DNA of 64,000 bases, from NCBI GenBank assembly GCA_965237675.1, contig OZ250150.1, positions 1,568,001 through 1,632,000 on the forward strand, given 5' to 3'. Made by a program: the position numbers and the translations under genes. Within the stretch, counting starts at the first letter, position 1. Each line of letters begins with the position of its first letter. The DNA comes from Candidatus Latescibacterota bacterium (lineage in GTDB: Bacteria; Latescibacterota; UBA2968; GCA-2709665). The notes beneath the pieces are model-generated. The model made no database searches. It saw only the letters and a program-made list of their open reading frames with translations, and had not been told where the DNA came from. Shown here one piece after another: positions 1 to 37,611 of the stretch.

Positions 1-1935
1 GATTTTGGAGTAAAATTCTTATTTATTAATTTTCACGCCCTTTTTCTTGTACGCCCAAGAATCGGCTGGAAGCAAGAGGGAAGACGTGGGAAGGGTTGGT
101 AACATTGTCGGATGACACCCCCGCACAATGGCTTGTCGAGCCGTTGAGGAATCGTGTGTGAAGGTGGGGCAGACATTCCTGTCTGCCCTTCTCATTGTCC
201 TTCTGCCGGAATGCAGACAGAAGAAAGGGTTGCGCCGCCGTCGCATTTGTAGGGGCAACCCTTGTGGTTGCCCACGTTGTGAATTTGGAGTAAAATTCTT
301 ATTTATTATTTTTCACGCCCTTTTTCTTGTACGCCCAAGAAAAAGGGCCAAAAAGAACGGCGCCGCTCAAACGCCGCGGGGCTGCTTTTCCGCGAAACCC
401 CTCAACAGTGTCGACAGGCTTTGGTGCCCTTCGTCCCTTCCATCCGTTCCTGAACCATGGCGTTGGACGGATTAGCGCGGAAAAACCCCGTCACCACCAC
501 CGGGCGGCCGTGAGGCAGATCGGGAAGGACCGCCACGCGGTATGGCTTCGAACCGCAGGTGTCGTATTTTGCTACATCTGGAAGGGCGGGCGTAGCGCCG
601 TCGTTGGAATTGTAGGGGCAACCCTTGTGGTTGCCCACGAAATGGCGCAGACATCGCTGGTCGACATCGCCAGGCCGCATCGCTAACCGATGTTAGCCAA
701 TCGCTATACGCCCACAGCCGATCGCGGGACGTTGGTCGACGTACGGTATCTGTAGGGGCGACCGGCGGGTCGCCCTTACAAAAACGAAATATCTGTGAAT
801 CTCTATCGCCGGTTCGTATCGCTAACCGCTGAATTTTAATTAAATTCTTATTTATTATTTTTCACGCCCTTTTTCTTGTACGCCCCAAGAAAAAGGGCCA
901 AAAAGAACGGCGCCGCTCAAACGCCGCGGGGCTGCTTTTCCGCAAATCGCCTCAATAGTGTCGACAGGCTTTGGTGCCCTTTGTCCCTTCCATCCGTTCC
1001 TGAACCATGGTGGTGGACGGATTAGCGCGGAAAAGCCCCGTCACCCCAACCGGGCGGGCGTGAGGCAGATCGGGAAGGACCGCCACGCGGTATGGCTTCG
1101 AACCGCAGGTGTCGCATTTTGCGACATCTGGAAGCGCGGGCGTAGCGCCGTCGTTGCATTTGTAGGGGCGACCCTTGTGGTTGCCCCTGTCACGGTGCTG
1201 ACATCGTAACGGGATTTCTAAGGTTTAACGCTGACCGCTGTCAGCTCGTCATTGGAAAGCCAGTCGGTTCTCGATCGCGAGCCCTGTCCGGAGGACCACC
1301 AGAGCAGAGCGCGCTATTCCGTTCATCTCGGAGATCGGGTACCCGCCCTCGCTGGTAGGGCAACGGGTCGTGTGCATCCTGTGAGGGTGTTCGCGCTGTG
1401 CATAAGTACGGCCCCGCGCCCAGCGGCGACTTTTAAAAGCGGTAAGAAGCAAGAGGCAAGAAGGGAAAAGGGTTAGTAACTTTGTCATATGAAACCCTCT
1501 GAACCGGAGTCTCGCTAACTGGAAAATAGAAGTGGATCGCGAAAGAGGGCGCGTAACCGGTGGGCGGCGGAGTGGCCTTCTCACCTCTACCGTCTTACGT
1601 CTCACGGTTTCAAGGAACCCTCCGGAGGCAAGGAATTTGGGGAGAGGTTGTGATTTTGGAGTTAAATTCTTATTTATTAATTTTCACGCCCTTTTTCTTG
1701 TACGCCCAAGAAAAAGGGCCAAAAAGAACGGCGCCGCTCAAACGCCGCGGGGCTGCTTTTCCGCGAAACCCCTCAACAGTGTCGACAGGCTTTGGTGCCC
1801 TTCGTCCCTTCCATCCGTTCCTGAACCATGGCGTTGGACGGATTAGCGCGGAAAAGCCCCGTCACCACCACCGGGCGGCCGAGGGATTAAACTTGAGGGG
1901 CCACAAGGCGGGCGGTTCGCGAACCGCCCCTACGA
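1..1935. repeat. Mosaic of nested dispersed repeats: three full structured-element copies (318-510, 867-1060, 1689-1881), a truncated copy (1-61) and GTAG-type REP hairpins
   Basis: Near-identical blocks CCCTTTTTCTTGTACGCCCAAGAAAAAGGG...CGGGCGGCCG. REP hairpins GTAGGGGCAACCCTTGTGGTTGCCC at ~248, ~612, ~1162, variants at ~752 and ~1910-1934 (reverse). The ORFs here are repeat translations. Confidence 0.85.
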
Positions 1936-2030
1936 AAACCTGACATCCGCGATATCGATGTCGCCAGGCCGGTATCGCTAACCCTCCCCCTCTCCTCGCA
2001 GGAGAGGGGGAGGGGGGAGAGGTTATCGAG

Positions 2031-2398
2031 ACCTACCCCCTAACCCCCTTCCTGAAGGAAGGGGGAACGGTGATCGTTCAATCTGTTGTGCTCGAGCTAG
2101 TGGCGAGATCGCGTATTCCAATCGATCAGAGCTTATATAACACAGCATTCACGAAACGTGTAGATTTACCCTCCCCCTTTCCTTTAGGAGAGGGGGCCGG
2201 GGGGAGAGGTTATCGAGACCTACCCCCTAACCCCCTTCCTGAGGGAAGGGGGAACGGTGATCGTTCAATCTGTTGTGCTCGAGCTAGTGGCGAGATCGCG
2301 TATTCCAATCGATCAGAGCTTATATAACACAGCATTCACGAAACGTGTAGATTAACCCTCCCCCTCTCCTCGCAGGAGAGGGGGCCGGGGGGAGAGGT
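2031..2398 (+). mobile_element. Two tandem (187-bp period) non-autonomous DUF559-element derivatives
   Basis: Each unit starts with left end ACCTACCCCCTAACCCCCTTCCTGAnGGAAGGGGGAA, contains TCCAATCGATCAGAGCTTATATAA (matches the 3' end of the DUF559 gene) and ends with right-end hairpin CTCCCCCTCTCCTCGCAGGAGAGGGGG...GAGAGGT. Confidence 0.75.
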
Positions 2399-2400
2399 CA

Positions 2401-2781
2401 ATGAAAAAATCCCGGCGAAATATCGTGATTGGTCAGCCTGTTGCGCTCGACAAAGTGAAGTTGGCGGGAAGTTTGCGGGCTCACATGACAGAAGAAGAAA
2501 AACAGCTCTGGCAGCACCTGCGTGCGAATCGGCTTGATGGCTTTCACTTTCGACGGCAACAAATCATCGATGGCTTTATTGTCGATTTCTACTGTCATTC
2601 GGTCGGTTTGGTAATTGAAGTCGACGGCGAGGTTCACCAGAATCAGGTGGCTTATGATGCAAAACGAGATGGTATTCTTACAGCGCGAGGATTACGAGTG
2701 ATGCGTATTTCGAATGTTGAAATCCGCACGAATTTGGGTGGCGTTCTCCAATCAATCAGAGCTTATATAAAACAGTGTTAA
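2401..2781 (+). CDS. DUF559 (Vsr-like) endonuclease domain protein
   Basis: Motifs MTEEEKQLWQHLR, FRRQQIIDGFIVDFYC, VIEVDGEVH, DAKRD; 126 aa. Confidence 0.92.
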   Translation: MKKSRRNIVIGQPVALDKVKLAGSLRAHMTEEEKQLWQHLRANRLDGFHFRRQQIIDGFIVDFYCHSVGLVIEVDGEVHQNQVAYDAKRDGILTARGLRVMRISNVEIRTNLGGVLQSIRAYIKQC

Positions 2782-3126
2782 CGCGCCGCTTAGTTCAGCT
2801 CCCCCTCTCCTCGCAGGAGAGGGGGCTGGGGGGAGAGGTCTCACAGTGTTAACGCGCCGCTTAGTTCAGCTCCCCCTCTCCTCGCAGGAGAGGGGGCTGG
2901 GGGGAGAGGTCTCACAGTGTTAACGCGCCGCTTAGTTCAACTCCCCCTCTCCTCGCAGGAGAGGGGGCTGGGGGGAGAGGTCTCATAGTGTTAACGCGCC
3001 GCTTAGTTCAACTCCCCCTCTCCTCGCAGGAGAGGGGGCTGGGGGGAGAGGTCTCACAGTGTTAACGCAACGCTTAGTTCAGCTCCCCCTCTCCTCGCAG
3101 GAGAGGGGGCTGGGGGGAAAGATCTC
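2772..3126 (+). repeat. Tandem array, 5 x 71 bp, of the DUF559-element right end
   Basis: Unit ACAGTGTTAACGCGCCGCTTAGTTCARCTCCCCCTCTCCTCGCAGGAGAGGGGGCTGGGGGGAGAGGTCTC starts at 2772, 2843, 2914, 2985, 3056. Confidence 0.95.
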
Positions 3127-4031: not shown

Positions 4032-4462
4032 TAGGAACCTGTTTGACGCCATAAATGGCGGTCGAAGGGCGGAATTGGCCGAATTCACGGCTGTTTTCAT
4101 CGACTATCGGAACCGGGTTGTTGAAATCTCATCACACAAAAGTAACGCGTCAACTGTGCTATCTCTGGCATGTGGGAGACGGAGGGGGTGGCTTTCGTGC
4201 ATTTAAAAGGAGGTGTTACAGGACCGATTGCTTACACGGGTTCAACCTAAATCGATAGTCACACTTAAGTTGTTGCAGGCCAGGCATTTTGAATTTTCCG
4301 ACAGAAGGGAGGAACGCCATTACAGCTAAATATTACAACTCTTCGGACTACAGGCATCCCCCCCGCGAGGTGCCAGAGTTGTTAAAGAGGTTGCTTTACG
4401 GCGCAGCAAGGCAGGTTTACGGTAGGTTTTTCGAAGCGTCCTGTTTCATAAGGAGGTTGGTA

Positions 4463-7400
4463 ATGCAGTTAAAAACGGTTTCAAGTCTTGGTTTGGCATT
4501 TCTGCTGGTTGTTGGAGTGGTCGGCGTGGCCTCGGCTCAGGTTGAGGTGGCCGCCACGCAGGGTATTTTAATTCGCGTCGACGCACCGAAAGCCAACGAA
4601 TGGGTCGCGATCGGCGATACGATCAGAGTCCGGATCCTGTGCTACGAAGACCGGCTCGAAGGTGGTTTCCGGATTGCGGTGGTTGATTCCGGCGTTGCCG
4701 ACGCCGGCATCGGAAGCTCTGAAGATGTGGCAGGGAAGATTTATTACAATATTGCTTCAGACGACAACGATCAGGTGAGATCGGGAACCGGTTCCGGCGT
4801 TGACACCTTCGAGGTCAAGATCGGGATTGTCGCCAACACCGTTCCCGCGGAGAATTTTGAGAGCGCCAGCAACCACGCATTGAAGGTTGTGGTCTCTCCA
4901 ACCGCGGCCGTCGACGGACCTCTGAACAACCTGATGAGGAACCGGAAGATCACGCCCGCCACAGCCGGTTTCGGCGCCACCCGCGTGGGTGACGGGAAGC
5001 TCTTCGGCGTCGACGCCGAACGCCCGATTCACGGCGATGTATTTGAGAGTATCGACCTGGATCTGGGCAGGTTAAACACCGTACTGGTCGATACGTCGAG
5101 GGCCGCCGATCTCACCGACATCGGCCAAGAGCCCTACATCCGGGAGATCCGGATTGTCACCGACCAGGTATTCAGAGCGGTGCTGAATCTGAGTACCTCG
5201 CAAATTCTCAACGCCAGGGCAGACAGGATCGAAGTCGGTCTCGCGCCCGTCGACTCGATTGCGCGCTATGAGTTAGAGATAGCGGATGGTGGCCTTGGTT
5301 TGAGCTCGGAAGTGGCGAATGCCGCCGCTTTCAAGGACGATGCGCGGGTAAAAATCGCGCTGCGCGGGGACAGGCTGTACAGCCCGAATCCGAGCGTTGA
5401 TATGAAAATCGAAGCGGGACAGTTTGCGGATAACGAGCGGCTCGAACTTTTCGCCTATCTCGTGGACGTCGCCGGTAACGTGGGCGGTACGGCTGCTGCG
5501 CCCGCCGCTGCCGATTGGAGAACCCTCCACGGCACCGACGGTGAGCTCCTAGCCGAAGTGGGAACTCTTACAACCGCAGCCGGTCCGGACGACAACACAG
5601 ACATTCCGATTATCGGCGACGCGACCGCGCCCAAGATCACGATTAATTATCCCAATCCGGACAGTCTCGCGGCCGGAACGCACGATCCTCTGATCACGGC
5701 GGCAATCACGCAGATGATTACCAATTATACGCCGTTGCCGGGTGAGGCGTCGGGCATAAACACGCGCGATTTGAATCCGCTCGTGATCAAACTCAGCGAA
5801 GCGCCGAGTAAGATCACGATCAAACACGCCGACAGTACGCTTACACTGAACCCCTTCACTGGCGATGATCCCGCCACCGAAGAACCAGAAGATGACTTCC
5901 CCTTGGATCCCACCGGCGGCGATTTAGTGGCCACGGTGGACTTCCTCAACGATACCCCCGAAGGCAACGGATGGTACAAGGTAGATAGCGGAACCGGCGC
6001 CGTGGCGGGTATCGCGAAAGGGAAGTACGAAGCCAAGGGCGGAACGTCCGGGGACATCGTGATCACGGTCTGGGACAGCCTGAACAACAAGTCCGAGATG
6101 ACGCTCGAGGGCATCACGCTCGACGGAAATACCCCGGGGATCGACAATTTGTTCCCCACGGATAAGACCGCGCCCAAAGACGCGGACAACGAGGACGCGC
6201 CCACCATCGACCCGGTCACCAGGAACCCGGTCTTCATAATCAACGAAGAGCTGGACTCGCTGTCCATACGTTATCATGAGGCGGGCGGCGGAACGGCCAT
6301 TGTGCAGGCCTACGGTCCGGGCAACGCCAGGCTGGAGACGGTTGGCAGTCTGGTCGACTGGCCGGTGAACGATACCACCTTCATCGATCGCCAGAGGTAC
6401 GATCTGGAAGTGCTGGCGTTCGACCTCGCGGGCAACGCCTTCGCGAAGGAGGGCGGTACGCTCACGTTCAAAGACGTCTTTATGAATCCGGACGCCGATA
6501 TGTTCATGGTTGTGCCGGATGCAGCCCTGAAAGAGAAACAGGTTGCCGGCGTGGACTACGCCATCGCGTTGTCCGTGCTCGACACAACGCTGACACGTGC
6601 CGAAAAGGCACAAGATAGTGACGCCGCCGACGTTCGGGCGGTAACCTATCACACGCCGTCGGCACTGGCCGCGATCGTTTCCGGCGACCAGGCCGAAGCG
6701 CTTGAAGGCGCGAGCTTCAGCGGCACCGGCGTGTCTGCGGCGCCCTCGTTCGCGCTTCCTGCCGAGTTGGCCGCCGCGGGCATGGTGGCGAAGGCCGCCA
6801 TCCTGGACGGCGACGGTTGGCACGCGGGTACGCGGACCGTCAAGTTCAAGTCCGAGAAGCCGCTCACGGGCGTGCAACTGATGGCGGCCGAGGGCTCCCT
6901 CGATCCCGCCACCGGCGCCTACACGCTGCGTATCAGCGGAATGGCTGCCAAGCCGATCGACGTCCAGATCGCGGAATTCTCCAAGTTCGCCCTCACGTCC
7001 ATGGAGGGTGAGATGTCAACCAACAACGTGGCCGGCTCCTTTACGGTCAGCGTTGTGCCGACCGACGCGTTCGGAAACCCCAGTTTGAGGATTGACAACA
7101 ATACGGGTGCGAAGGATTACACATCGATTTCATTCACCTTCGCTTCCAGCAACGCCGCGGTGACGGTGCCCTCCGGTCAGCAGATGGTGACCAGCCTCGA
7201 AGGGTCCATGTACGGCGCGGTGGCTGCCGACGTTGGCGGCAGCGCGACGGTCAGCGTCAGGACGATTGTTGATACCTACGTAACCGGCGCTTTACAAGCT
7301 TTACAAGCAGATTCACCTGAGGATGTAGAAGATAAGACCGGCGCACTCGTGGGCAGCGTTGCAGTCAACATCGTGTCCGACGACGGTACCGGACCGGATC

Positions 7401-9394
7401 CGGGCGCGCCGGCTGCTCCTGCCAACATCGTGGTCCAGGACTACCTGGGCGCGGACGGTTCGGGCGACCAGGGCGGCATTGTAAAGATTACCTTCCCGAA
7501 CTCGTCGCAACATGACGCCGTGTCCCACTACCAGATCTCAAGGGAAATCGACTCGACCACCGGTCTGGATGACGAAGGCAACGTGGTTGAGCTCGAAGAG
7601 CCCGTGAAGGCGTGGGTGGCCTGGACGAGCGTCAGCTTCGCCGCCGATGCAGGCGACGAGATGGGCGACGCGGGCGGCGACATGCAGAACGTTATCGTCC
7701 CGGCGCTGGACAACGTGGCCACCAACTGGGGCGTTACGGCGGTTAGCGGCGCGGGCTCCTCCGACCAGACCACGGCCAGCAAGCGCGTGTTCACGAAGGA
7801 GAGCGTGGAGCAAGCCCTGCAACTGCTGGGTATGGCGCCCGAGGCGGTTCTGACGGACGACGAACTGATGGCTCAGTTCAACGCTCCCGAAGACTACGTC
7901 AAGTCCCTCATCGGCGATCAGAAGAACGTCATCTTCGCGCCGGTCAATCCCGACGTGAGCGCGCTGATGGGCAGCACCTCGGTACCGGCCAACATCCGTA
8001 CGGCCGGCCATATCTCCGCGGGCAGTTTCCTGTCGTCCGCTCGCACGGTTACCGAGGAGCCTGTCGCAGCCGTTGACAACATCGCTCCCGCCGCAGTCAC
8101 CGACGCTTCCGGCGACGGTGCGGGCGGTGTGGTGTTGAGTTGGACGGGGTCCGCCAGTGAGGGGACCGTGGGTTCCATTCCTTATCGCGGATACAACATC
8201 CCAATCCTGGGTGTCAGCGGCTACAAGGTGCTGAGAGGCACGTCTGCCGACGACCTCGAGGAGATTGCGAGCCTCGATCCGGGTTCGACGCAGTTCAGGG
8301 ACGACAATGTGCCTGATGGGGCCGGTTCCCTCGTGTATCGGATCGACGCGTATGACGACAACAACGTGGCGATGGGCGAATTGATCGCGGTCGAGAATAT
8401 CTCGGTCCGTGTGAGCTTCGTCGATGCCAACGGCGATCCGGTCTACCTCATTGCGCTGCCGTCGCAGGGCGGCAACCTGGAGGTTGACTTCGAAGACTTC
8501 GTCGCCTTTGCGCAGGCTTTCAACAGCCGGAAGGGCGATGCCAACTACAATCCGCAGGCCGACGTCAACGACGACGGCACGGTGGACTTCTCCGACTTCG
8601 TAACGGCGGCCAGGTCCTACGGTCTTACGGCAGTGGTTCCGGCAGGCAGCAAGCTGGCGATCGCTCCGCAGCGCCCGGGCGTGAACGCCGATACGGAGAT
8701 GACCCTCGAACTGACCAGCGAGACGGTGAAGGTTGGCGAGACGATCTCGGTGACGGTATCCATGGCCAATGCCAGGCAGTTGAACGGCTTCGGTCTGGAA
8801 CTGAAGTATGACGCCGAGAAGTTCGAATTCGTCAGCGCCGTTCCCGCTGAAGACGATCTGTTGAAATCCCAGGGTGGCGAGACGCCGCTGTTCAAGAACT
8901 GGCCGGAAGAGGGCCGGGTCTCGGTGGTCAACGCCATTATCGAGGCGGGTTCCGTGAGCGGCGAGGGTGCGCTTGTGACCTTCACGTTCAAGGTTCTGCG
9001 GGAGTTTGAGGACAACGCCCGGTTCGAGATCGCACAGGGCGTGGTCTTCGATCCCGATCAGCTACAGAACCCGGTGGTGTCGCTCGGTGCGCTGGACGTG
9101 CAGAGCACGCCCACCGAGTTCGCGCTGCACCAGAACTTCCCGAACCCGTTCAACCCTCAAACCAACATTCCGTATGACCTGGCTGAAAACGGCGACGTGG
9201 TTCTGCGGATCTACAACCTGCTGGGCCAGGAGGTGCGCACGCTGGTGCGTGAGCGCCAGCCCGCCGGTCGCTACACGGTGCAGTGGAGCGGAATGGACGA
9301 CCGTGGCGTCTCGGTTTCGAGTGGAATTTACTTCTATCAGGTCTCGGTTGCCGGTAAGTTCCAGGATGCCAAGCGGTTGATGTTGCTCAAGTAG
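4463..9394 (+). CDS. Large secreted surface protein (~1643 aa): Ig-like region, dockerin-like EF-hand pair, cohesin-like domain, FlgD-Ig/T9SS-type C-terminal sorting domain
   Basis: RBS AGGAGG before ATG 4463; signal peptide ending VASA; DFEDFVAFAQAF...DVNDDGTVDFSDF; ETVKVGETISVTV...FGLELKYDAEKFEFVSA; LHQNFPNPFNPQT...SSGIYFY...LMLLK. Confidence 0.85.
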   Translation: MQLKTVSSLGLAFLLVVGVVGVASAQVEVAATQGILIRVDAPKANEWVAIGDTIRVRILCYEDRLEGGFRIAVVDSGVADAGIGSSEDVAGKIYYNIASDDNDQVRSGTGSGVDTFEVKIGIVANTVPAENFESASNHALKVVVSPTAAVDGPLNNLMRNRKITPATAGFGATRVGDGKLFGVDAERPIHGDVFESIDLDLGRLNTVLVDTSRAADLTDIGQEPYIREIRIVTDQVFRAVLNLSTSQILNARADRIEVGLAPVDSIARYELEIADGGLGLSSEVANAAAFKDDARVKIALRGDRLYSPNPSVDMKIEAGQFADNERLELFAYLVDVAGNVGGTAAAPAAADWRTLHGTDGELLAEVGTLTTAAGPDDNTDIPIIGDATAPKITINYPNPDSLAAGTHDPLITAAITQMITNYTPLPGEASGINTRDLNPLVIKLSEAPSKITIKHADSTLTLNPFTGDDPATEEPEDDFPLDPTGGDLVATVDFLNDTPEGNGWYKVDSGTGAVAGIAKGKYEAKGGTSGDIVITVWDSLNNKSEMTLEGITLDGNTPGIDNLFPTDKTAPKDADNEDAPTIDPVTRNPVFIINEELDSLSIRYHEAGGGTAIVQAYGPGNARLETVGSLVDWPVNDTTFIDRQRYDLEVLAFDLAGNAFAKEGGTLTFKDVFMNPDADMFMVVPDAALKEKQVAGVDYAIALSVLDTTLTRAEKAQDSDAADVRAVTYHTPSALAAIVSGDQAEALEGASFSGTGVSAAPSFALPAELAAAGMVAKAAILDGDGWHAGTRTVKFKSEKPLTGVQLMAAEGSLDPATGAYTLRISGMAAKPIDVQIAEFSKFALTSMEGEMSTNNVAGSFTVSVVPTDAFGNPSLRIDNNTGAKDYTSISFTFASSNAAVTVPSGQQMVTSLEGSMYGAVAADVGGSATVSVRTIVDTYVTGALQALQADSPEDVEDKTGALVGSVAVNIVSDDGTGPDPGAPAAPANIVVQDYLGADGSGDQGGIVKITFPNSSQHDAVSHYQISREIDSTTGLDDEGNVVELEEPVKAWVAWTSVSFAADAGDEMGDAGGDMQNVIVPALDNVATNWGVTAVSGAGSSDQTTASKRVFTKESVEQALQLLGMAPEAVLTDDELMAQFNAPEDYVKSLIGDQKNVIFAPVNPDVSALMGSTSVPANIRTAGHISAGSFLSSARTVTEEPVAAVDNIAPAAVTDASGDGAGGVVLSWTGSASEGTVGSIPYRGYNIPILGVSGYKVLRGTSADDLEEIASLDPGSTQFRDDNVPDGAGSLVYRIDAYDDNNVAMGELIAVENISVRVSFVDANGDPVYLIALPSQGGNLEVDFEDFVAFAQAFNSRKGDANYNPQADVNDDGTVDFSDFVTAARSYGLTAVVPAGSKLAIAPQRPGVNADTEMTLELTSETVKVGETISVTVSMANARQLNGFGLELKYDAEKFEFVSAVPAEDDLLKSQGGETPLFKNWPEEGRVSVVNAIIEAGSVSGEGALVTFTFKVLREFEDNARFEIAQGVVFDPDQLQNPVVSLGALDVQSTPTEFALHQNFPNPFNPQTNIPYDLAENGDVVLRIYNLLGQEVRTLVRERQPAGRYTVQWSGMDDRGVSVSSGIYFYQVSVAGKFQDAKRLMLLK

Positions 9395-9505
9395 TCAGGA
9401 AGCGTATGGGAGGTTCCCCCGGGAGCCTCCCATACTTAACGTTTTCCTTCTGGAGCGAGCATTAAATCCTGGAGCGAAACACACACACCGAGAAGGAGAA
9501 GCGCG

Positions 9506-10999
9506 ATGTATGGAATAAAACCGATTTTGAGCTTCGTTGCGTCGGCCGCGTTTCTTGTGGCTGTTACCGTCGGAGGCGTCGATGCTGGTGCGCTGGCCGG
9601 TAAGAAGCTGCTGGTCGACACCGCATATAGTATGATGGACGCCGGCGACAGGGTGAACGAGGGTGTGAACACCCTTGCACCCGTGGCGGCCGGCGACACC
9701 GTTAAAGTCGAGTTGTTTATGGAAGATGGCGGCGGTGTACAAATCATAGGAGGCGAAGTCAAATTTGCCGATCGCAATATGGAGATGATGTTCGAGGAAG
9801 GTTGGGAGGTAGTCGGAGTTAGTTCTATCGTCCCGGCCGCTCCCGGTATTTCCCCCCAAATCTCCAAGGCAGGCTTTGCTTTGTTGTCTTTAGCGCCGAC
9901 CGAGGCCCCGGCTAACGGTTATCTGGGCACGGTGAAGATCGTTGCCCTCGCTGATATCGGCGACGGGTCGTCCTTTTACGTCAAATCCGCCGCTATCAGC
10001 AGTGGTGCGTCGTTACAGGCCATCGAATCGGATAGTCTGGACGTGTCCGAGGCCATCGTGACCTTTGCGACCCCGACGGGGCCTGGCCTGATGGGCATGG
10101 GCGACATGCTGATCGAAGGGAATATGCTTCAGATTCCCACCGACGGCAGCGGCGCCTCAGTGACCGTCGAGCTGGAAAATGTCGAATCCGAAGAGCCGGT
10201 TGTTAGTTGGACGGTGACCAGCGAGGGCAGCGGCACGCTGGCCATCCTCGATGCGGATGACATGATGCTCGATCTCGACGACCAAATGATGGTGTCGGGG
10301 CCGACCAAAATTATACTGAAGGTGACCGGTGGCGATCTCCAGGTGACGGTTAAGGCCAACGTGGACGGGGAAGATACGGCGCCCGTGACCTTTACGTTCA
10401 CCCAGCTGAACCCCGCCGAACTGGCTTCCTTCGACGGCGCCATTCAGGACAACAGAGTGGTTCTGAATTGGTCCACGATGTCGCAGACGAACAACGCCGG
10501 CTGGCGGATCACGCGTAGCGTCGACGGCGTGAACTTCGAACCGGTAGGAAACTTCGTTCAGGGCGAGGGAACCTCCGACGCGCTGTTGAATTACACCTTT
10601 GAAGACAAGAACCTGCCGGGTGTGGAGAAAGTTTACTACAGGCTCGAGCAGGTGGACCTGGACGGTTCGGTCTCCCGTTCGAACGTGATCGAGGTGCTTC
10701 TGGGCGCCCGGATGCCGTTGCCGACCGAGTTCGCGGTCAACGTGTATCCCAACCCCTTCAACCCCAGCACCACGATTTCTTACGACATTCCCGAAGGCTC
10801 GCCGGTGTCGGTTGTGATTTACGACGTGCTCGGCCAGCAGATCCGGCACCTGGTGTCGCAGCACAACGCCCCGGGCCGGTATCAGATTCAGTGGGATGCC
10901 AGGGACAACCAGGGCCGCAGTGTTGCAAGTGGCGTCTACATCGCCAGGGTCAACGCCGGAACGTCCTCTTTGTCTCAGAAAATGCTGCTGCTGAAATAA
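9506..10999 (+). CDS. Secreted protein with possible N-terminal cohesin-like domain and FlgD-Ig/T9SS-type C-terminal domain
   Basis: Signal peptide; PAELASFDG...VVLNWST; VYPNPFNPSTTISY...ASGVYIARV...KMLLLK. Confidence 0.85.
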   Translation: MYGIKPILSFVASAAFLVAVTVGGVDAGALAGKKLLVDTAYSMMDAGDRVNEGVNTLAPVAAGDTVKVELFMEDGGGVQIIGGEVKFADRNMEMMFEEGWEVVGVSSIVPAAPGISPQISKAGFALLSLAPTEAPANGYLGTVKIVALADIGDGSSFYVKSAAISSGASLQAIESDSLDVSEAIVTFATPTGPGLMGMGDMLIEGNMLQIPTDGSGASVTVELENVESEEPVVSWTVTSEGSGTLAILDADDMMLDLDDQMMVSGPTKIILKVTGGDLQVTVKANVDGEDTAPVTFTFTQLNPAELASFDGAIQDNRVVLNWSTMSQTNNAGWRITRSVDGVNFEPVGNFVQGEGTSDALLNYTFEDKNLPGVEKVYYRLEQVDLDGSVSRSNVIEVLLGARMPLPTEFAVNVYPNPFNPSTTISYDIPEGSPVSVVIYDVLGQQIRHLVSQHNAPGRYQIQWDARDNQGRSVASGVYIARVNAGTSSLSQKMLLLK

Positions 11000-11055: not shown

Positions 11056-11312
11056 GTACGTAGCCATCAACGGTCAGCCATCAGCATTCAGAAAAATAGC
11101 TAAGCCGTTATATTCGCGAATCAATCATATCCACCCCCGCACAATGGCTTGTGGAGCCGCTGAGGCAGCGTGTGTGAAGGTGGGGCAGACATTCCTGTCC
11201 TTCCCTTCGTGTTTACGCAACACTTCGTTCGACTCCCCCTCTCCTCGCAGGAGAGGGGGCCGGGGGGAGAGGTCCTTCTGCCGGAATGCAGACAGAAGAA
11301 AGGCTTGCGCCG

Positions 11313-11532
11313 CCTTTATAGATCCAATACTCGGGGTCGCGCAGTCCGGCTCTTGCGGTATTTTCCACGATGTAACGGACGAGGCGCCAAACCTGCTTTT
11401 CGCTGCGCACCATGTGATCATATCGGATACGTCGAGCCGGAAAGTCCCGGTGACCCCCGTGAGTTGGTTGATTTCGTGGGCAGATGCGCCCTTAATGCCC
11501 TGCAGAATCCGCGAAAGGTCCTGGCCTCCCAC
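11313..11532 (-). pseudogene. Truncated, frameshifted REP-associated tyrosine transposase (RAYT/Y1) remnant
   Basis: LSRILQGIKGASAHEINQLTG, then in another frame MVRSEKQVWRLVRYIVEN; the N-terminal HUH half is absent. Confidence 0.7.
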
Positions 11533-12032
11533 CGGTTCCTCGCGGCCACCTGTCGACCGCCCGGTTGTGGAGTAGGGGGTGTCTATCGCCCTCTAACGTG
11601 TTTAACCGTACCTGCGCCCGGTGGCGAAGTTTGGGGGTTTGCGGCCCCACCGGTTCTCCCGTCGACCGCCCGGTTGTGGAGTGGGGGGTTTTTCCGTGCT
11701 GATCCGTCCAGCAGTGTCGTCTGGTTGATACTCGGGGGGTCTCAGGGCAATGTCTCACGATTTCTCTACGAAGGAGATTCGCGGAAAAACCGGCCCCGTG
11801 CCGAACGGCGCCGTTCTTTTTGGTCCTTTTTCTTGGGCGTACAAGAAAAAGGACGGAGAGAGGAAAAAAGCACGAAGTATAAGGAAGCGTGTGTGAAGGT
11901 GGGGCAGACATTCCTGTCTGCCCATCTCGTGTTTACGCAACACTTCGTTCGACTCCCCCTCTCCTCGCAGGAGAGGGGGCCGGGGGGAGCGGTCCTTCTG
12001 CCGGAATGCAGACAGAAGAAAGGCTTGCGCCG

Positions 12033-12255
12033 CCTTTATAGAGCCAATACTCGGGGTCGCGCAGTCCGGTTTTTGGGGGGTTTTCCGGGATGTAGCGGAC
12101 GAAGCGCCAAACCTGCTTTTCGCTGCGTACCATGTGATCATAGGATTCGTCGAGCCGGAAAGTCCCGGTGACGCCCGTGAGTTGGTTGATTTCGCGGGCA
12201 GATACGTCTTTAATGCCCTGCAGAATCCGCGAAAGGTCATGCCCTCCCAGCGGTT
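12033..12255 (-). pseudogene. Truncated RAYT/Y1 transposase remnant (C-terminal half)
   Basis: LSRILQGIKDVSAREINQLTGVTGTFRLDESYDHMVRSEKQVWRFVRYIPENP resembles the RAYT C-terminus (DESFDH..R...YI.NNP). Confidence 0.72.
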
Positions 12256-13328
12256 CCTCGCGGCCACCTGTCGACCGCCCGGTAGGGGAGTAGGGGGTGT
12301 CTATCGCCATCTAACGTGTTTAACCGTACCTGCGCCCGGTGGCGAAGTTTGGGGGTTTGCGGCGTCACCGGTTCTCCCGTCGACCGCCCGGTTGTGGAGT
12401 AGGGGGTTTTTCCGTGCTGATCCGTCCAGCAGTGTCGTCTGGTTGATACTCGGGGGGTCTCAGGGCAATGTCTCACGATTTCTCTGCTGAGGAGATTCGC
12501 GGAAAAACCGGCCCCGTTCCGAACGGCGCCGTTCTTTTTGGTCCTTTTTCTTGGGCGTACAAGAAAAAGGACGGAGAGAAAAGGGACGTCCGGGGGTAGG
12601 GAAGATTCCACCACCCGCAAATTCCGTTCCGGTGGCGGCGTGGGGGTTTCTATCGCCCTCTAACGGGTTTAACCGTACCGGCGCCCGGTGGCGAAGTTTG
12701 GGGGTTTGCGGCTTCACCGGTTCTCCCGTCGACCGCCCGGTTGTGGAGCGGTGGGTTTTTCCGTGCTGATCCGTCCAGCAGTGTCGTCTGGTTGATACTC
12801 GGGGGGTCTCAGGGCAATGTCTCACGATTTCTCTACTAATGAGATTCGCGGAAAAACCGGCTCCGCGCCGAGCGGCGCCGTTCTTTTTGGTCCTTTTTCT
12901 TGGGCGTACAAGAAAAAGGACGGAGAGAGGAAAAAAGCACGACGTGTGTAGAAATACCAGTGCCTGCCCGGAACGCAGTTCCAGCAACGGTAGTCCGGCA
13001 ATACAGGACGTAACAAGTTGCATTCCGTAAAACTCAAAAAGGACCACGCAACGCGGACTCTCGCATGGATGCGCGTTTCCGCTCCCACGCGTGCCGAACG
13101 GCGCCGTTCTTTTTGGTCCTTTTTCTTGGGCGTACAAGAAAAAGGACGGAGAGAAAAGGGAAGTCCGGGGGTAGGGAAGATTCCACCAACCCCAAATTCT
13201 GTATCCAACCGACCGGAAAAATCACTTCCCCTACGGAACGGAACCCCATCCGATTCGTTAAAAGATTAATCGGCCACGGTTCCGGAATAAGTGGACAGAT
13301 ACGAGACAGGGCAAGGAGGAGACAAGAG

Positions 13329-15078: not shown

Positions 15079-15091
15079 TAGGAGGCGTTCC

Positions 15092-24984: not shown

Positions 24985-25249
24985 CACGCTTAAACGTCCA
25001 GCATCATTACTATACGTTACCACGTATAGATTTGATTTTGACTGGCGGCAAGACCGCAAACACGTTCAAAACTCCTTCGCGGTATACCTCATGGCCGTCC
25101 GGTGGCGGAGTGGGGGCTTTTCCGCGTTATTCCATCCACCACCTGTGCTTGGTGGTCGCAATGAAGCCCGCAGGGCACAGCCTCCGGTTTCGGCCTCCGA
25201 GGGAGTTCGCGGAAAAGCAGCCCCGCGGCGTCTGAGCGGCGCCCTTCTT
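24985..25249 (-). repeat. Structured dispersed element, variant 4
   Basis: Scaffold GGGGCTGCTTTTCCGCGAA...CGCGGAAAAGCCCC with central TGCCCT (AGGGCA at 25172-25177); extension similar to 37315-37420. Confidence 0.75.
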
Positions 25250-25548
25250 TCAAAGGCGGTGAGACGGGAGACGGGTAGAAGGGAGAGGACCACACCGCAC
25301 ACCGCCGGGCTCGCGCTCCACTAAGCAATTCTCTTCTATTTGAATATTGCGAGAATCCGATTGCGGACGTCTCACCTGTCAAAGTTATCACCACCTCTTC
25401 CGTCTTCCCTCTACCCTCTCACGGCTTTTTGGCGATGCAAGAAAAAGGGCAAGGGAATAGGGGACGTTTGGGGGTGAGGGAGATTCCATCTCACGGGTGC
25501 CGAAACGCGCATTTCTTTCGCCATAGGATCGGAGATTGAGCGGGGTTC

Positions 25549-27360: not shown

Positions 27361-28183
27361 GCCTATGGGTCCTGGTGGGGATTTTCTGGATCTGCTGAAG
27401 GCCGAAGGATACCGGCTGCCCGGCGCCGACCTGCAGAAAAGCGCATCGGGCGGCCCGGCGTCCCTTCCGTTTCAGCCCACCGAAGGCACAACCATCCTCG
27501 CGCTGCGCTACCGGGATGGCGTTCTTATCGCGGGCGACCGCCGGGCCACCGCCGGCCATACCGTGCTTTACGACCGCGCCGACAAGGTCATCGATATCGA
27601 CGCCCATTCGGTGATGGCCATTTCGGGGTCGCCGGCGATGGCATACGAGATCGCCCGGATTCTGGAACACACGTTTCAATATCACCGGCGGCGGCAGTTG
27701 CAGGAGATGAGCCTCGCGGCGAAACTCCGGCGCCTATCGCTTCTGATTCGCGACAATTTGCCCATGGCCATGCAGGGCATCGGTCCGGTGATTCCCATTT
27801 TCGCCACGTTCGATCGACGGGACAACCGCGGCAAGATCTTTTTTTACGACGTGCTGGGCGCGCAGTTCGAGAGCGGGGACTTCGCCACCACGGGTTCGGG
27901 CGCGGCGGCCATCCGGGGTGCGATGTATTACAACAACCAGTGGGGCGAGCGTCCCTTTGCCGAACTGGACCGGAGCGAGATCCTCGGAATGGTGCTGCGC
28001 CTGCTGCACACGGCGGCGGAATACGACGCCGCCACCGGACGGTACGAGCGGCATTCCGGCGTGTTGCCCACGGTGAAGACGATCTCCGCCGATGGACTGC
28101 TTACCGTGCCCGAGGACGACCTGCGGGCGTCTTACGAGCGGTACATTGCCCAATCCATAGGACAGGGAGACGCCGACGGATGA
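27353..28183 (+). CDS. prcB: 20S proteasome beta subunit
   Basis: Propeptide then TEG/TTILAL catalytic Thr, IAGDRRATAG, TGSG. Start GTG 27353 or ATG 27365. Confidence 0.92.
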   Translation: MSEPMGPGGDFLDLLKAEGYRLPGADLQKSASGGPASLPFQPTEGTTILALRYRDGVLIAGDRRATAGHTVLYDRADKVIDIDAHSVMAISGSPAMAYEIARILEHTFQYHRRRQLQEMSLAAKLRRLSLLIRDNLPMAMQGIGPVIPIFATFDRRDNRGKIFFYDVLGAQFESGDFATTGSGAAAIRGAMYYNNQWGERPFAELDRSEILGMVLRLLHTAAEYDAATGRYERHSGVLPTVKTISADGLLTVPEDDLRASYERYIAQSIGQGDADG

Positions 28184-28959
28184 TGCTGGACGAACCCTAT
28201 CGATGGGCGGATGCGGTAGCCAACCGGCGGGAATACATCGAAGACCAACTTCGGGGCGGCAGTCCGGTTGTGGGCCTGGGCTACAGGGACGGCGCGTTAT
28301 TGCTGACGCTTGGACAGGGACAGCAGAAAATCTTCGAGGTGTACGACCGCATCGGCATGGCCGCGCTCGGACACCCAACCGATATCGAGAAGTTGCGCCA
28401 GGCCGCCGTCGACCTGGCTTCGGTAATTGGCTTCAACTATTCGGAGCAGGACGTCAACCTGCAGCAGATCGTGCATTTCGGTCTTGGCCCCGCGGTCAAG
28501 ACGGCTTTCGACGAGGTGTTCCGGGCGCCGTATCTTGTGCGGGTGTTGATGCTGGAACTGGATGGCGCGGAAGAGGGCGCCGTCTTCTATACCGTGGAAT
28601 ACGATGGCGCGTTTCAGAAATACGATGGCCGCGGCGTTGTGGGCGAAATGCCGGAAGCGGACACGTTGATGCGGACCTATCTGCCGGATACGGCCCGGCT
28701 CAGCCTGCGAAACGCACTGAAGGCCGCGCTGGAGGCGTGGGCGGCCGGACGTTTTGCGGGAGACCTGGATGAGGTCCCCCGGGACGTGTCGGAGTTGGAA
28801 CGGGCGGCCCGAGAGGCCGATCTGGAAGGCATTTTAAAGGCTGCATTGGAAACGTCCACGGTTGAGGCCGTGGTTTTCGAACGATCCGGGCCGGACAAAC
28901 GCAGGTATCGCGTTGTGACCCGGAAAGAGATCCAGCCCGTCGTCAAGCCGTATCGCTGA
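28180..28959 (+). CDS. prcA: 20S proteasome alpha subunit
   Basis: ATGA overlap with prcB; RREYIEDQLRGGSPVV, QKIFEVYDRI. Confidence 0.88.
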   Translation: MMLDEPYRWADAVANRREYIEDQLRGGSPVVGLGYRDGALLLTLGQGQQKIFEVYDRIGMAALGHPTDIEKLRQAAVDLASVIGFNYSEQDVNLQQIVHFGLGPAVKTAFDEVFRAPYLVRVLMLELDGAEEGAVFYTVEYDGAFQKYDGRGVVGEMPEADTLMRTYLPDTARLSLRNALKAALEAWAAGRFAGDLDEVPRDVSELERAAREADLEGILKAALETSTVEAVVFERSGPDKRRYRVVTRKEIQPVVKPYR

Positions 28960-29110
28960 GACCCCCCGGAACCCGCTGATTTTACCATCCCCGGGGGCGC
29001 CGGAAACGGTTCTCGGGCCGGTCGAATTGTGGAATCGTCGTGCGCCGCTCCGGGCGGGTGCGGACAGGCGGATGCGGATCATCCAAGAGATGGACATGTA
29101 AGGGCCCGCG

Positions 29111-30577
29111 ATGGAACGACGAATTTTCGGTCTGGAAACCGAGTACGGGTGCATGGCGCCGGAGCACGAGGGCCTCGTGAGCCCGGATGCCATTACGGTT
29201 AAGGTGAAGGACCATATTTTCCACACCGAGCGTAAGGGGATTGTCGATATCCATTATCGGGGCAGGGACGAACCGCCGGGTAACGGCGGTTTTTTGTTTA
29301 ATTCCGGCAGGGTCTATATCGATATGGGTCATATCGAATACACGACCCCGGAGTGCAAGAGCCTGTTCGACCTGGTGGCCTTTGACCGGGCGGGAGAACG
29401 CATTCTGCAACGTGCGCTCCGTTCGCTGGGGCTGGCGAAGGAAGCTTCGTTCCTGAAGAACAACATCGACCACTATACGGGGGCTACCTTCGGCTGCCAC
29501 GAAAATTATCTGATCCGCCGAAACGTGCCGTTCTCGATGGTCGTGATCCCGGCATTGCTGCCCTTTCTTGTAACCCGACAGATCTTCAGCGGCGCCGGCA
29601 GGGTGGGCAGCTACGACGACAGCTTCTATTATTATGGCCGGGAAGACGCGGACGATGCCTCCCATGACGATCCCGTCGCCTTTCAGATTTCGCAGCGCGC
29701 CGACCACATTGTCACGGAGATCTATCAATGGATCCAGTTTTCACGTGCGATTATCAATACGCGGGACGAGCCGCTGGCCGACTATAACAAATACCGCCGG
29801 TTGCACCTGCTGATGGGCGATTCGAATATGTCGGAATACGCCACCGCGTTGAAGGTCGGTACCACGGCGATGGTGTTGAATTTGCTCGAGCATAAGATTT
29901 TTCCGCAGGACGTGGGCCTGGGCGACCCGGTGTTGGCGTTGAAGGAGATTTCCCGGGATCCTACGCACCGATGGATTCTGGACCGCAAGAATGGCCGACC
30001 GGTTACCGCGGTCGACATTCAGCGGCGGTACCTGGATCTGGCGAAACGCCATCTGCGGGGTATGGACGAGGAGTCGGACTGGGTGCTGGCCGAGTGGGAG
30101 CAGACGCTGGATGCGCTGGAGCGGGATCCCATGAGCTTGAAGGACCGGCTGGACTGGGTGGCCAAGAAGTGGATGCTGGAGATGTTCGTACAATCGGAAG
30201 GCGTGGACTGGAACGATCCGTGGCTTCAGAGCCTGGATCTGGAGTTTCACAATATCGATCCCAATCGGGGGGTTTTCCTCGACCTTGAGCACAAGGGCAT
30301 GACGCGTCGCATTCTGACGGAGAAGCAGATCGCGCGCGCGGACGACGAACCGCCCGCCGATACGCGAGCCCGGGGCCGGTCCGACGTGATCAGGGCCCTC
30401 TCGGAGAACCGGGTGCGGTATATCGTGGACTGGGATTCGGTGTATCTGGAGAACGAGAGCCAGCTGAGTCTTCAGGATCCGTTCGAGACCTACACGGACG
30501 CGGCGGCCAGGTTCATCCAGGAGATACGTTCGGCCTCACCCTCGCCACGACGCCCCATGCGGCGACGGTTGAAGTGA
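29111..30577 (+). CDS. pafA: Pup/UBact-protein ligase
   Basis: RRIFGLETEYG, FLFNSGRVYIDMGHIEYTTPEC, TFGCHENYL, ISQRADH, SRAIINTRDEP. Confidence 0.85.
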   Translation: MERRIFGLETEYGCMAPEHEGLVSPDAITVKVKDHIFHTERKGIVDIHYRGRDEPPGNGGFLFNSGRVYIDMGHIEYTTPECKSLFDLVAFDRAGERILQRALRSLGLAKEASFLKNNIDHYTGATFGCHENYLIRRNVPFSMVVIPALLPFLVTRQIFSGAGRVGSYDDSFYYYGREDADDASHDDPVAFQISQRADHIVTEIYQWIQFSRAIINTRDEPLADYNKYRRLHLLMGDSNMSEYATALKVGTTAMVLNLLEHKIFPQDVGLGDPVLALKEISRDPTHRWILDRKNGRPVTAVDIQRRYLDLAKRHLRGMDEESDWVLAEWEQTLDALERDPMSLKDRLDWVAKKWMLEMFVQSEGVDWNDPWLQSLDLEFHNIDPNRGVFLDLEHKGMTRRILTEKQIARADDEPPADTRARGRSDVIRALSENRVRYIVDWDSVYLENESQLSLQDPFETYTDAAARFIQEIRSASPSPRRPMRRRLK

Positions 30578-36136: not shown

Positions 36137-36448
36137 TGCCGGCGATCGGAGCGTGTGGCGTGACTCACAGGAAGGGGTACGTTTTCGCCCTGGTAAATTT
36201 GATCCAGCGTTGAGGCTGGTTGTATCCGACGATGCTACTTCGGGAAGTCATCTCTGCCTGATATCCTTCTATATTTCCACTTTCATTTCCGTTACATTTC
36301 AAAACTAACGCTTTAAATATAATAAGTTATACAATTATAAACAAATCGAATTCAATCTTATTTCACGATTCGTTTCAAACTTATTTCCCGTTCCACCTGC
36401 ACGTTGGTGGTCGATTTGGAGCCATTCCGCCGGCTTGTCCCGCAGCAT

Positions 36449-37246
36449 TCATCGTGACGCGAAATCTTCCTCGTCGTTCCGGTTCGTCTTCAGGCCGGCC
36501 GCTTCGAGGCAGCGGTCCATCTCGGCGACCAGATCCCTGTACCGGGCGCTGCGGAAATAGGCCTTTGCGCGGTCCGACTGCCGCAGGCCCGTTCTGTCGG
36601 TGTAGCGCATGGTCCCGGTGTACACGTCGTCCGCGGCGTCTTTCAGCAGCCGCGCGAAGCGGGCCGGCTGACCGTAGAGCAGAGGCGCCACCGCCGCGGT
36701 AACGTGAATGCCCGCTGCCCTGAGGCGCCGCATGGTTTTCAGCCTGACTTCAATCCGAGGCGCGTGCGGCTCCAGTTTGCGCCGGACGCGTTCGTCGTCG
36801 GTGGGCACGGAGAAACACACCCGCAGACGGGTTTTGAACCCCTGCAGCAGGTCGGTATCGTCGAGGACGAGGTGGCTCCGTGTGTGTACCACAACGTCTT
36901 TCGGGTTACTGTCCAGCAGGACGCCCAGGCAGCGGCGGGTCAGCCGGTATTGCCGTTCCACGTATTGGTACGGGTCGGTGGCCGAACCCACGAAAATCCG
37001 CCGGCCCCATATCTTGTCGCGCGCCTTGGCCAGAAGAAAGGGCGCGTTCGTCTTGGGCTGGACCCATTCGCCCCACGGCAGGGGGTGTTCCGCGGCGTAG
37101 TGGTATTTCATAACGTAGCAATAGGCGCATCCCATGCCGCACCCGACGTACGGATTCAGGGTGTATCGGGTGGCGGGAGGGCCGTCCTGTGGCATCAGGA
37201 CCGAACGCGCTTCGGTCTCTTCGATTTCCAGATGGGTGTGCGCCAT
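36449..37246 (-). CDS. Radical SAM protein, SplB/Rv2578c-like DNA repair family
   Basis: LNPYVGCGMGCAYCY (CxxxCxxC), GSATDPYQYVE, TRSHLVLDD. Confidence 0.85.
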   Translation of the reverse strand: MAHTHLEIEETEARSVLMPQDGPPATRYTLNPYVGCGMGCAYCYVMKYHYAAEHPLPWGEWVQPKTNAPFLLAKARDKIWGRRIFVGSATDPYQYVERQYRLTRRCLGVLLDSNPKDVVVHTRSHLVLDDTDLLQGFKTRLRVCFSVPTDDERVRRKLEPHAPRIEVRLKTMRRLRAAGIHVTAAVAPLLYGQPARFARLLKDAADDVYTGTMRYTDRTGLRQSDRAKAYFRSARYRDLVAEMDRCLEAAGLKTNRNDEEDFASR

Positions 37247-37314
37247 ATACTGAATATACTGCACAAATGTTCATTAATCAAGTCCGAAAGAGGTCTGGGC
37301 GAAGAGCAGGGAAA

Positions 37315-37611
37315 CGCGCTTTAACGTTAAGCAACGTCATTATACGTGAATACGTCCCGCTTTTGTTGTACCAGGGGTAAGACCCCGAACACATTCAACA
37401 GTCCAAGGCAGTCTTGTTCCCGCGCGACCGGTGGTGGAGAGGGGGGTTTTTCCGTGCTATTCCGTCCAGCACAGTGGTACAGGTACACGTGAAAGGTTTG
37501 CAGGGCACCCAATTCCCATTTGTGCCTCTGAGGTGATTCACGGAAAAACCGGCCCCGTGCCGAACGGCGCCGTTCTTTTTGGTCCTTTTTCTTTGCGAGA
37601 AAGAAAAAGGA
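37315..37611 (-). repeat. Structured dispersed element, variant 3
   Basis: Hairpin CCTTTTTCTTTCTCGCAAAGAAAAAGG, scaffold stem and central TGCCCT (AGGGCA at 37502-37507). Confidence 0.8.

Follow-up and report, generated by a model that had tools for sequence, protein, structure and literature searches.

What kind of element keeps its paired scaffold and the length of its loop through dozens of copies in one bacterial genome, while the sequence of that loop is free? The question is raised by a 64-kb stretch of the chromosome of a Candidatus Latescibacterota bacterium (G000:C1:1568001-1632000, hereafter the window), whose genome, G000, comprises 5.6 Mb with 58% GC. An initial annotation, made from the sequence alone, had placed eight copies of a dispersed structured element here, each with two hypervariable segments, A and B, on either side of an invariant TGCCCT. 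We refer to this main element as type I and to a diverged sister family that shares its architecture as type II. The element family is large, lineage-specific and previously undescribed, and it belongs to sponge-associated Latescibacterota. [quoted passage not shown]

The element and its distribution

The motif TTTTCCGYG is found 15 times in the window against an expectation of 2.29 (sd 1.35), a count that 0 of 100 shuffles reach, and its matches form inverted pairs about 90 nt apart at all eight annotated sites, copy 2 having TTTTCCGCA on its 5' side. Reading of the sequence found each of the eight core copies where it had been placed and confirmed the annotated parts: a perfect 5' hairpin, AAGAA(C/G)GGCGCCG, the stem TTTTCCGYG/CRCGGAAAA, an A segment of 21, 21, 22 or 21 nt in the four variants, TGCCCT, a B segment of 33 nt and TGGAYGGA. 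The division into four variants (318/867/1689; 11663/12381/12730; 25094; 37423) was likewise borne out. The copy at 25094 had been described as having lost its hairpin; the hairpin is instead split by an insertion of about 175 nt of another small repeat, and it is intact in the orthologues of this copy in G008 and G012. Beyond the eight annotated copies, the window holds a type II copy, a 5' fragment and a truncated start, which are listed here together with the others.

1..61, plus strand: type I leader and 5' hairpin arm, cut off by another small repeat
317..508, plus strand: type I copy 1, with the 5' hairpin (317-348), A-run and GC hairpin (349-379), 5' half of the stem (386-394), segment A (404-424), TGCCCT (425-430), segment B (431-463), TGGACGGA (464-471), 3' half of the stem (476-484) and a C-rich tail to CCGGGCGG (485-508)
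866..1057, plus strand: type I copy 2, the variant of copy 1
1217..1518, minus strand: type II copy, tail-to-tail with copy 2
1688..1878, plus strand: type I copy 3, the variant of copy 1
11666..11854, minus strand: type I copy 4, variant 2
12384..12572, minus strand: type I copy 5, variant 2, within a segmental duplicate of 718 nt that repeats copy 4 together with its flank
12733..12921, minus strand: type I copy 6, variant 2
13081..13164, minus strand: type I 5' fragment with leader, hairpin, A-run and GC hairpin only
25095..25250, minus strand: type I copy 7, from GC hairpin to tail
25251..25430, minus strand: unrelated small repeat within the hairpin of copy 7, with purine-rich inverted ends and TAACTTTGACA
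25431-25450: displaced 5' hairpin arm of copy 7
37424..37612, minus strand: type I copy 8, the variant with a 22-nt A segment, in the same orientation as a radical SAM gene and upstream of it

Within the universal unit of about 190-215 nt, a long perfect hairpin is followed by an A-run and a GC hairpin; closing stems with their loop come next, and the last part is a C-rich tail of the form ..CCCC..CCACNACCGG.CG. The loop of about 58-67 nt is closed by an 11-bp stem and a short second helix. Pairwise alignments between loci start at the hairpin and end at the C-rich tail; leaders and 3' extensions differ by subfamily, and in many copies a decayed second 3' piece lies 70-110 nt downstream. In type II the order is hairpin, A-run, GC hairpin, stem, CCUC, loop with TGCCCT, TGGACGGAAUAG and stem. 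Compared with type I, its loop is 1-2 nt shorter and its stem has a different sequence (CACAGCGCG/CGCGCTCTG).

A strict regular expression recovered 42 copies from G000, and a profile built from these gave 141 matches at E <= 1e-3 in the same genome. Full type I copies (>100 bits, >150 model positions) number 74, and a second profile identified 18 full type II copies. Among 41 relatives, a loose pattern was positive in 12, all of them titled Candidatus Latescibacterota, and its reversed control in 0; the positives include 9 of the 14 genomes of the genus, both genomes of a second genus and none of the 19 of the sister family. The number of pattern matches among congeners ranges from 0 to 46, and three genomes (G013, G010 and G001) contain mostly type II. 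A stricter pattern applied to 185,579 species genomes found at least 76 loci, and the matches listed belong to metagenome-assembled genomes titled Candidatus Latescibacterota and to one titled Gemmatimonadota. Viral contigs contained no pattern match. Metagenome contigs gave 16 matching stretches, of which three were inspected: L122 is a genuine diverged copy whose hairpin arms covary, and L130 and L133 were rejected as chance matches within coding sequence. Rfam 15 gave 0 matches at the gathering score across the whole 64 kb, and at E <= 10 positions 250-700 yielded matches at chance level only (E >= 0.26, far below gathering). A full-text literature search found, by its listed records, no description of such an element, and the portions of one Latescibacterota genome paper reached by a term search mention neither transposons nor non-coding elements.

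As a separate observation, in about 20 of the 51 copies that were aligned, the GC hairpin has at its apex a palindromic mini-insert of 30-40 nt (CCTGCCTGCC..GGCAGGCAGG; GCCTGCCTGCCGAGCACGGCTCGGCGCAGGCAGGC and variants). Its position is constant (alignment columns 88-168), and examples are L019, L030, L036 and the copy in the spacer between ARC and dop in G012.

A paired scaffold around a loop of fixed length

Pair counts over the 51 aligned copies, which come from six genomes, show that the hairpin and the long stem act as real helices or inverted repeats. The 5' hairpin is 86% paired, with one pair occurring as CG in 10 copies, GC in 10 and UA in 10, and the long stem is 97-98% paired, with one pair occurring as CG in 35 and UA in 14. 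Type II retains the long stem despite its other sequence. Four of five whole-structure measures exceed 500 shuffles, and the paired fraction, the number of compensatory pairs and the covariation score lie above all 500 shuffles and all slid controls. The start of A had been proposed to pair with the end of B through different bases in each variant. This pairing stands for its first four pairs, CCUC with GG..GG, which are 86-98% paired with changes on one side only, and fails for the next three, which are paired in 49-69% of the 51 sequences.

Inside the loop, no column pair among 95 equal-length type I cores shows Watson-Crick covariation, and the mutual information found there is subfamily signal only. 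Shuffling A and B leaves the predicted fold no weaker (mean z +0.11; 2 of 51 cores below -2), and single-sequence folds vary between copies. The initial annotation had named a lack of significant covariation as speaking against a folded element; such a lack is seen in the variable part and not in the scaffold. The lengths, in turn, are held. Counted from CGCGAA, 95 of 125 unique type I cores measure 28+6+33 nt and the others lie within 1-2 nt of this, and type II cores (n=40) measure 27+6+31 or 27+6+32 nt. A few conserved positions are scattered inside the loop. A and B make up the halves of a single large loop, one on each side of TGCCCT; both are free in sequence and fixed in length, and the earlier judgement that this is not simple MITE drift is supported, since length is held while sequence is free.

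The G-U pairs had also been taken to favour one strand, a claim that survives in the short helix only. There, C-to-U changes opposite G in type I give 112 GU against 9 AC, in favour of the strand on which the element had been annotated, and in type II 34 GU against 0 AC, so that each type is favoured on its own strand. The wobble pairs of the long stem (27 AC against 6 GU) favour the opposite strand. On that opposite strand, the GC hairpin is followed immediately by TTCTTTTT, at one constant place in the scaffold, in 8 of the 8 window copies and in the fragment at 13096, which makes an intrinsic-terminator-like site; the A-run, a T-run on this strand, is at least 90% conserved in the 51 copies.

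Two further candidate functions were examined and rejected. Coding on the annotated strand is contradicted by stop codons in all three of its frames in the commonest variant (judged by eye), by the 24% of cores that are off by 1-2 nt, and by conservation without 3-nt periodicity. Bacteroidetes-type promoters carry the motif TTG/TAnnTTTG. The T-rich stretch upstream of the hairpin that was considered as such a promoter pairs instead with the A-run after the hairpin, and a promoter consensus of any kind was not found.

Evidence on transcription comes from two metatranscriptome runs of a related strain, available as contigs, which give neither strand nor ends and whose depths sum over copies and organisms. 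RNA contigs with depths of 25-179 match scaffold on either side while passing over the loop. Of 30 bins, the two that contain copies had RNA depths of 80-151 and 10-12 read 0; in a DNA run, the two copy-holding bins lay about 10-fold above single-copy depth. On these depths, uniform DNA carry-over does not account for the RNA signal. Other repeats of the stretch compared are equally covered by RNA contigs. The copy 8 core and the beginning of the radical SAM gene downstream are linked by one RNA contig; uncovered parts, and the contig end at 37570 shared by RNA and DNA, are uninformative. Taken together, there is weak to moderate evidence that members of the family are transcribed.

The annotation had further suggested that the loops might act as guides, as in IS110 bridge RNA or TIGR units, and this idea has found no support, given the absence of IS110 and TnpB, the lack of target matches and the single unstructured loop. 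The bridge RNA is encoded in the non-coding end of IS110 insertion sequences (IS) and, in the parts of the report consulted, is described as a 5' stem-loop and, after it, two stem-loops that contain internal loops, the sides of which pair with 8-9 and 4-7 nt of target and donor (PMC11208160). By that partial account, the element resembles it in having a 5' stem-loop and then a stem around segments of low conservation beside conserved bases. In contrast to it, the element lies outside IS110 ends in a genome that lacks the recombinase, it has one large loop with a single closing stem and no conserved inner helix, and its loops show no complementarity to flanks or other loci. Searches of G000 gave 0 matches to the IS110 DEDD recombinase (PF01548) and none to a TnpB-type domain, with positive controls in both cases. 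IS110 is absent from seven of the nine relatives with at least five pattern matches; G000, G008, G009, G012, G013, G015 and G019 carry the element and are without IS110, and the seven IS110 copies of G001 are on other contigs or 127 kb from pattern matches. Against the repeat-masked genome, the mean best scores of A and B equalled those of shuffles (26.0 against 25.7 bits for A, 27.5 against 27.8 for B), and against the 420-nt flanks of 58 copies the longest matches were 6.0-7.6 nt for a copy's own loop and 6.0-6.9 nt for swapped loops; this matching is blind to split guides of 4-7 nt and to foreign targets.

The statement that no cognate protein is visible in the window holds, and it extends to the whole genome. 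No protein recurs beside the copies: most clusters of open reading frames (ORFs) are ORFs inside the repeat itself, and the sole real neighbour cluster consists of paralogous GFO/IDH/MocA oxidoreductases. Where a type I and a type II copy are widely spaced, neither cargo nor transposase lies between them, and the intervening genes are ordinary (BrkB-like, PspA, RraA-like and similar). Domain searches of G000 matched 4 RVT_1, 34 DDE_Tnp_1 and 4 rve domains.

Mobility, loop exchange and the nature of the element

All 74 type I copies of G000 are intergenic. The 46 isolated ones have no orientation bias to neighbouring genes (14/12/10/10), and by eye plus- and minus-strand copies are intermixed along the chromosome, giving no sign of a replication-strand bias. 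Across 207 kb of synteny between G000 and G008, with genes 80-96% identical, the counts are 21 for type I and 8 for type II in G000, and 9 for each type in G008; 16 intergenic gaps hold an element, 10 of them in both genomes, 3 in G000 only and 3 in G008 only. The ARC-dop spacer carries a type I copy at the matching place and in the matching orientation in G000, G008, G010 and G012; it is 34 nt long in G015, and in G013 it contains other repeats but no type I or II. A Y1 (IS200-like) transposase gene of the window is cut exactly at the 3' end of an element unit (..GGTGGCCGCGA|GGAACCGCTGGGAGG), and its intact paralogue L002 is about 90% identical from the cut point onward. The remnant is found twice in the window.

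11992..12257, minus strand: remaining 3' portion of a Y1 (IS200-like/RAYT-like) transposase gene cut at the element end
11272..11539, minus strand: second copy of the truncated Y1 fragment, a segmental duplicate with a 2-nt insertion

The element is itself interrupted: another small repeat splits the hairpin in the 25094 copy, at window positions 1-61 and in most type II copies. Because of the copy-number swings, the presence or absence at orthologous sites, the gene disruption, the nesting and the lack of both a linked protein and an orientation bias, the element acts like a selfish mobile repeat.

At shared loci, the loop may be swapped while the flanks stay about 95-100% identical. The ARC-dop copies carry three unrelated loop sequences, one in G000, one common to G008 and G012, and one in G010. 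In the orthologous pair 1479339/2473450, which shows the swap most clearly, identical positions number 27 of 27 in the scaffold ahead of the loop, 10 of 22 in A, 3 of 14 in the opening 14 nt of B and 15 of 19 in its closing 19 nt, and the 3' flank has about 95% identity over some 160 nt; the A segment of the G008 copy matches a family found elsewhere in G012. Grouping of A, B1 and B2 by single linkage chained the clusters together. Short-tract gene conversion between copies, using homology of the scaffold, would fit these loop swaps better than local hypermutation.

Some sites hold what we call solo units, in which a small hairpin, GCGGCGCGGTTTTTGCCGCGAAC, is followed directly by the same C-rich tail (AAACCCC..CCACAACCGGGCGG). 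They are seen at G000:C1:1335555, 1882742, 2826595 and 2832578, at about 24880-24960 on the minus strand of the window, and in G008 at the radical SAM locus (C1 ~2354000), where G000 has the full copy 8. Solo units could be target sites that are still unoccupied, or what a deletion has left behind. In full copies, the tail CCACNACCGG.CG may be where insertion takes place.

Type I and type II copies are arranged by a strict rule. A scan for adjacencies of less than 600 nt covered G000, 280 kb of G008 and 76 loci, with 148 type I and 62 type II copies. All 34 adjacencies between the types are inverted, 27 tail-to-tail and 7 head-to-head, and all 7 same-type adjacencies are tandem; the adjacencies are partly segmental duplicates, and about a dozen separate loci of G000 and three of G008 obey the rule. 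The tail-to-tail pairs, which make up most of these adjacencies, lie 8-230 nt apart. In a fused form (219788), a type I copy and an inverted type II copy, each reduced to its 5' half, are joined at a palindromic CCTCNGAGG, with both loops deleted. Of the 74 type I copies in G000, 56 are solitary.

Among known repeats, MITEs offer the closest comparison in size and habit. Where a survey of them was consulted, it describes non-coding elements of <500 bp, present in tens of copies between genes, with transcripts predicted to fold into stem-loops, truncated or nested copies and insertion polymorphism (PMC10969869). The element is likewise shorter than 500 bp, non-coding, multi-copy and intergenic, it is present or absent at orthologous sites, and its nested and truncated copies recall Correia/NEMIS, Chunjie and QMITE as far as these are covered there. 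It differs from them, on the same partial basis, in being GC-rich rather than AT-rich, in its strict loop length, in its obligate inverted mosaics of types I and II, and in the lack of a related autonomous IS that would supply a transposase. Its inverted repeats are internal (the hairpin and the long stem), and when terminal repeats of 4-30 bp were sought, one subfamily showed, by eye, a possible leader-tail pair GGTGGTGGA/TCCACCACC.

The alternation of types has its parallel in the REP, BIME and REPIN sequences of enterobacteria and pseudomonads, which are imperfect palindromes of two types that alternate, lie outside genes and are partly transcribed. REP units measure about 20-40 nt, carry a GTAG-type motif and are linked to a RAYT gene. 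The element is extragenic too, and its two types alternate in orientation within clusters, without exception in the adjacencies counted above. In contrast to REP units of about 35 nt, its unit of about 200 nt has a 60-nt loop and no GTAG-type motif; no link to a RAYT gene was found, and the RAYT-like Y1 genes of G000 are flanked by a different palindrome, GGGCAGACAGGAATGTCTGCCC. The ends of IS200/IS605 elements have subterminal hairpins and no terminal inverted repeats. The element shares with these and with their non-autonomous derivatives the subterminal hairpins and possibly strand-specific folding, but its paired types I and II would fold on opposite strands, TnpB is lacking and the Y1 genes probably belong to another repeat.

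The data above show the size and distribution of the family, its scaffold pairing and loop-length constraint, insertion polymorphism, local replacement of sequence, the orientation rule by which the two sister types build strictly alternating mosaics, and the lack of a linked protein. We hypothesize that copies move to fresh positions between genes, into other repeats and, in at least one instance, into a gene, and that loop sequence is exchanged by gene conversion through the scaffold, which would give the loops their 'hypervariable' look. The scaffold would be kept because a trans-acting protein recognises folded single-stranded nucleic acid or spaced binding sites, the fixed loop length would reflect the geometry of this recognition, and transcription would be real yet not the primary function. 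Fixed loop length and strict inversion of the two types point to a specific trans-acting partner, whose substrate might be folded single strands, spaced sites in double-stranded form or an RNA.

Several observations weigh against a mobile repeat of the MITE or BIME kind. Terminal inverted repeats at the true ends are not definable, with ends that differ between subfamilies, and neither is a target-site duplication, the compared empty sites being too diverged or rearranged. No parent IS was found: the ends of the three DDE IS families examined are unlike the element, and Y1 and IS110 genes do not track it, with G013 and G009 carrying the element and lacking Y1 genes. A strict loop length is not usual for MITEs or REPs and is left unexplained by such a reading, and the conserved positions within the loop, together with the unpaired motifs AAUC, UGCCCU and UGGACGGAAUAG, suggest a specific partner. 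Finally, scaffolds reach an RNA depth of 40-180 while many single-copy bins read 0, so that the family may have a function as RNA.

Two other explanations have been weighed. A DNA transposon family mobilised in trans may have types I and II as its left-end and right-end modules, the constant motifs being protein-binding sites on double-stranded DNA whose spacing, and with it the length of A and B, is fixed by the transpososome, an arrangement that we consider unlikely. Multi-site ends are known from Tn7-like or Mu-like elements. The invariable inversion of I and II, tail-to-tail in 27 of 34 cases, the fixed spacing with a free spacer sequence, the insertion polymorphism and the fused form at 219788, with both interiors deleted, would all be expected of such ends; solitary type I copies (56 of 74), wide I..II pairs without cargo or transposase, and the lack of definable terminal repeats or duplications would not, and the C-to-U changes in the short helix of both types fit single-stranded folding better, although they perhaps reflect only transition bias. 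Alternatively, the family may comprise some 100 structured small-RNA genes in which a constant protein-binding scaffold presents a fixed-length specificity loop, guide- or decoy-like, to an unlinked effector. The fixed length and free sequence of the loop and its conserved unpaired motifs agree with this, as do the terminator-like hairpin and T-run on the opposite strand of the eight window copies and the 13096 fragment, in whose orientation I-II pairs would be divergent gene pairs, and the scaffold depths of 40-180 in two RNA runs in which 10-12 of 30 bins read 0. However, A and B match neither their own genome nor their flanks above controls, no viral copies were found, there is no linked protein, IS110 or TnpB, the copy number ranges from 0 to about 90 among congeners as in selfish repeats, a promoter consensus was not found, and the wobble evidence from the short helix and the long stem conflicts over the strand. 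We regard small-RNA genes as unlikely, and the narrower proposal of scaffolded small RNAs whose loop halves of 21-28 nt and 33 nt are programmable specificity segments for an unlinked effector as quite improbable; if the latter were true, gene conversion among about 100 copies would be a diversity generator, and an RNA-guided or decoy system would be laid out not in arrays but in single units scattered over the genome.

It is highly improbable that the element serves a downstream gene as a cis-acting leader, riboswitch or attenuator. Copy 8 lies upstream of and co-oriented with the radical SAM gene, one RNA contig spans both, and many copies have the decayed second 3' piece 70-110 nt downstream. 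The next gene downstream, however, shares the orientation of the element at 24 of the 46 isolated copies and runs the other way at 22, counts that bring this explanation close to refuted, and the neighbours are unrelated genes at whose orthologues the element is present or absent. If the family is a mobile intergenic repeat, it adds a well-defined new member to the few characterised small mobile repeats of bacteria, from a candidate phylum represented by metagenomes only. Two of its properties then need a mechanism, namely a loop that is fixed in length, free in sequence and exchanged, and sister types that occur only mutually inverted. Together with at least four other kinds of repeat in the window, the element would explain much of the intergenic rearrangement between congeneric symbiont genomes, and its sites would mark where short-read assemblies break.

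Other repeats and genes of the window

The small repeat found in copy 7 belongs to a separate family whose inverted ends are rich in purines (GGTAGAGGGAAGACGG .. CCCTTCTACCCGTCTCCCGTCTCAC) and which has TAACTTTGACA/TCATATGACAAAGTTA as its inner motif. Members are seen in the window at 25251-25430 (minus strand), 62-140 (plus) and 1430-1520 (plus) and at many sites in G013 and G010 (L094, L095, L100 and L101), often in the 3' arm of type I or type II hairpins, as if this were a preferred target. REP-like palindromes, TGTAGGGGCAACCCTTGTGGTTGCCC and GGGCGGTTCGCGAACCGCCCCTAC, often follow the type I 3' extension, in the window at 230-275, 600-640 and 1160-1200 and at many other sites of G000. Tandem repeats are also present. 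The positions 14117-14926, 14866-15098, 16912-17083 and 21336-21801 hold a 102-nt repeat of at least six units and arrays of the decamer AATCACAGTC that flank several genes, and a 71-nt repeat with the palindrome CCCCCTCTCCTCGCAGGAGAGGGGGCCGGGGGGAGAGG forms a tandem array and dispersed copies (2752-3126, 11186-11274, 20265-20353 and 60757-60845), with high coverage in the RNA runs (bin 20001-20667).

Among the genes, those at 22888-30577 make up a set of the Pup-proteasome type, with a proteasomal AAA ATPase (ARC/Mpa-like) and two genes of the Pup-ligase family, and 4289-10999 encodes two large proteins with C-terminal sorting domains of the type IX secretion system. On their flanks, the RAYT-like Y1 genes of G000 carry the palindrome GGGCAGACAGGAATGTCTGCCC as well as GGTGGAGCGGACATTCTTGTCTGCTCAC, found in the window at 165-190 and 11895-11925 and elsewhere at G000:C1:1532740-1533500 and 1676800-1677560 (L002 and L003); GGGCAGACAGGAATGTCTGCCC and GGTGGAGCGGACATTCTTGTCTGCTCAC probably represent the Y1 genes' own REP family, distinct from the element. 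A Y1_Tnp-like domain also lies inside open frames of 1200-1440 aa at G008:C1:1912863, G010:C1:4547970, G012:C2:164316 and 170050, and G016:C1:3070656-3072395, and the Y1-like gene at G000 C1:1781826 is followed, by eye, by an ORF resembling SNF2-type helicases.

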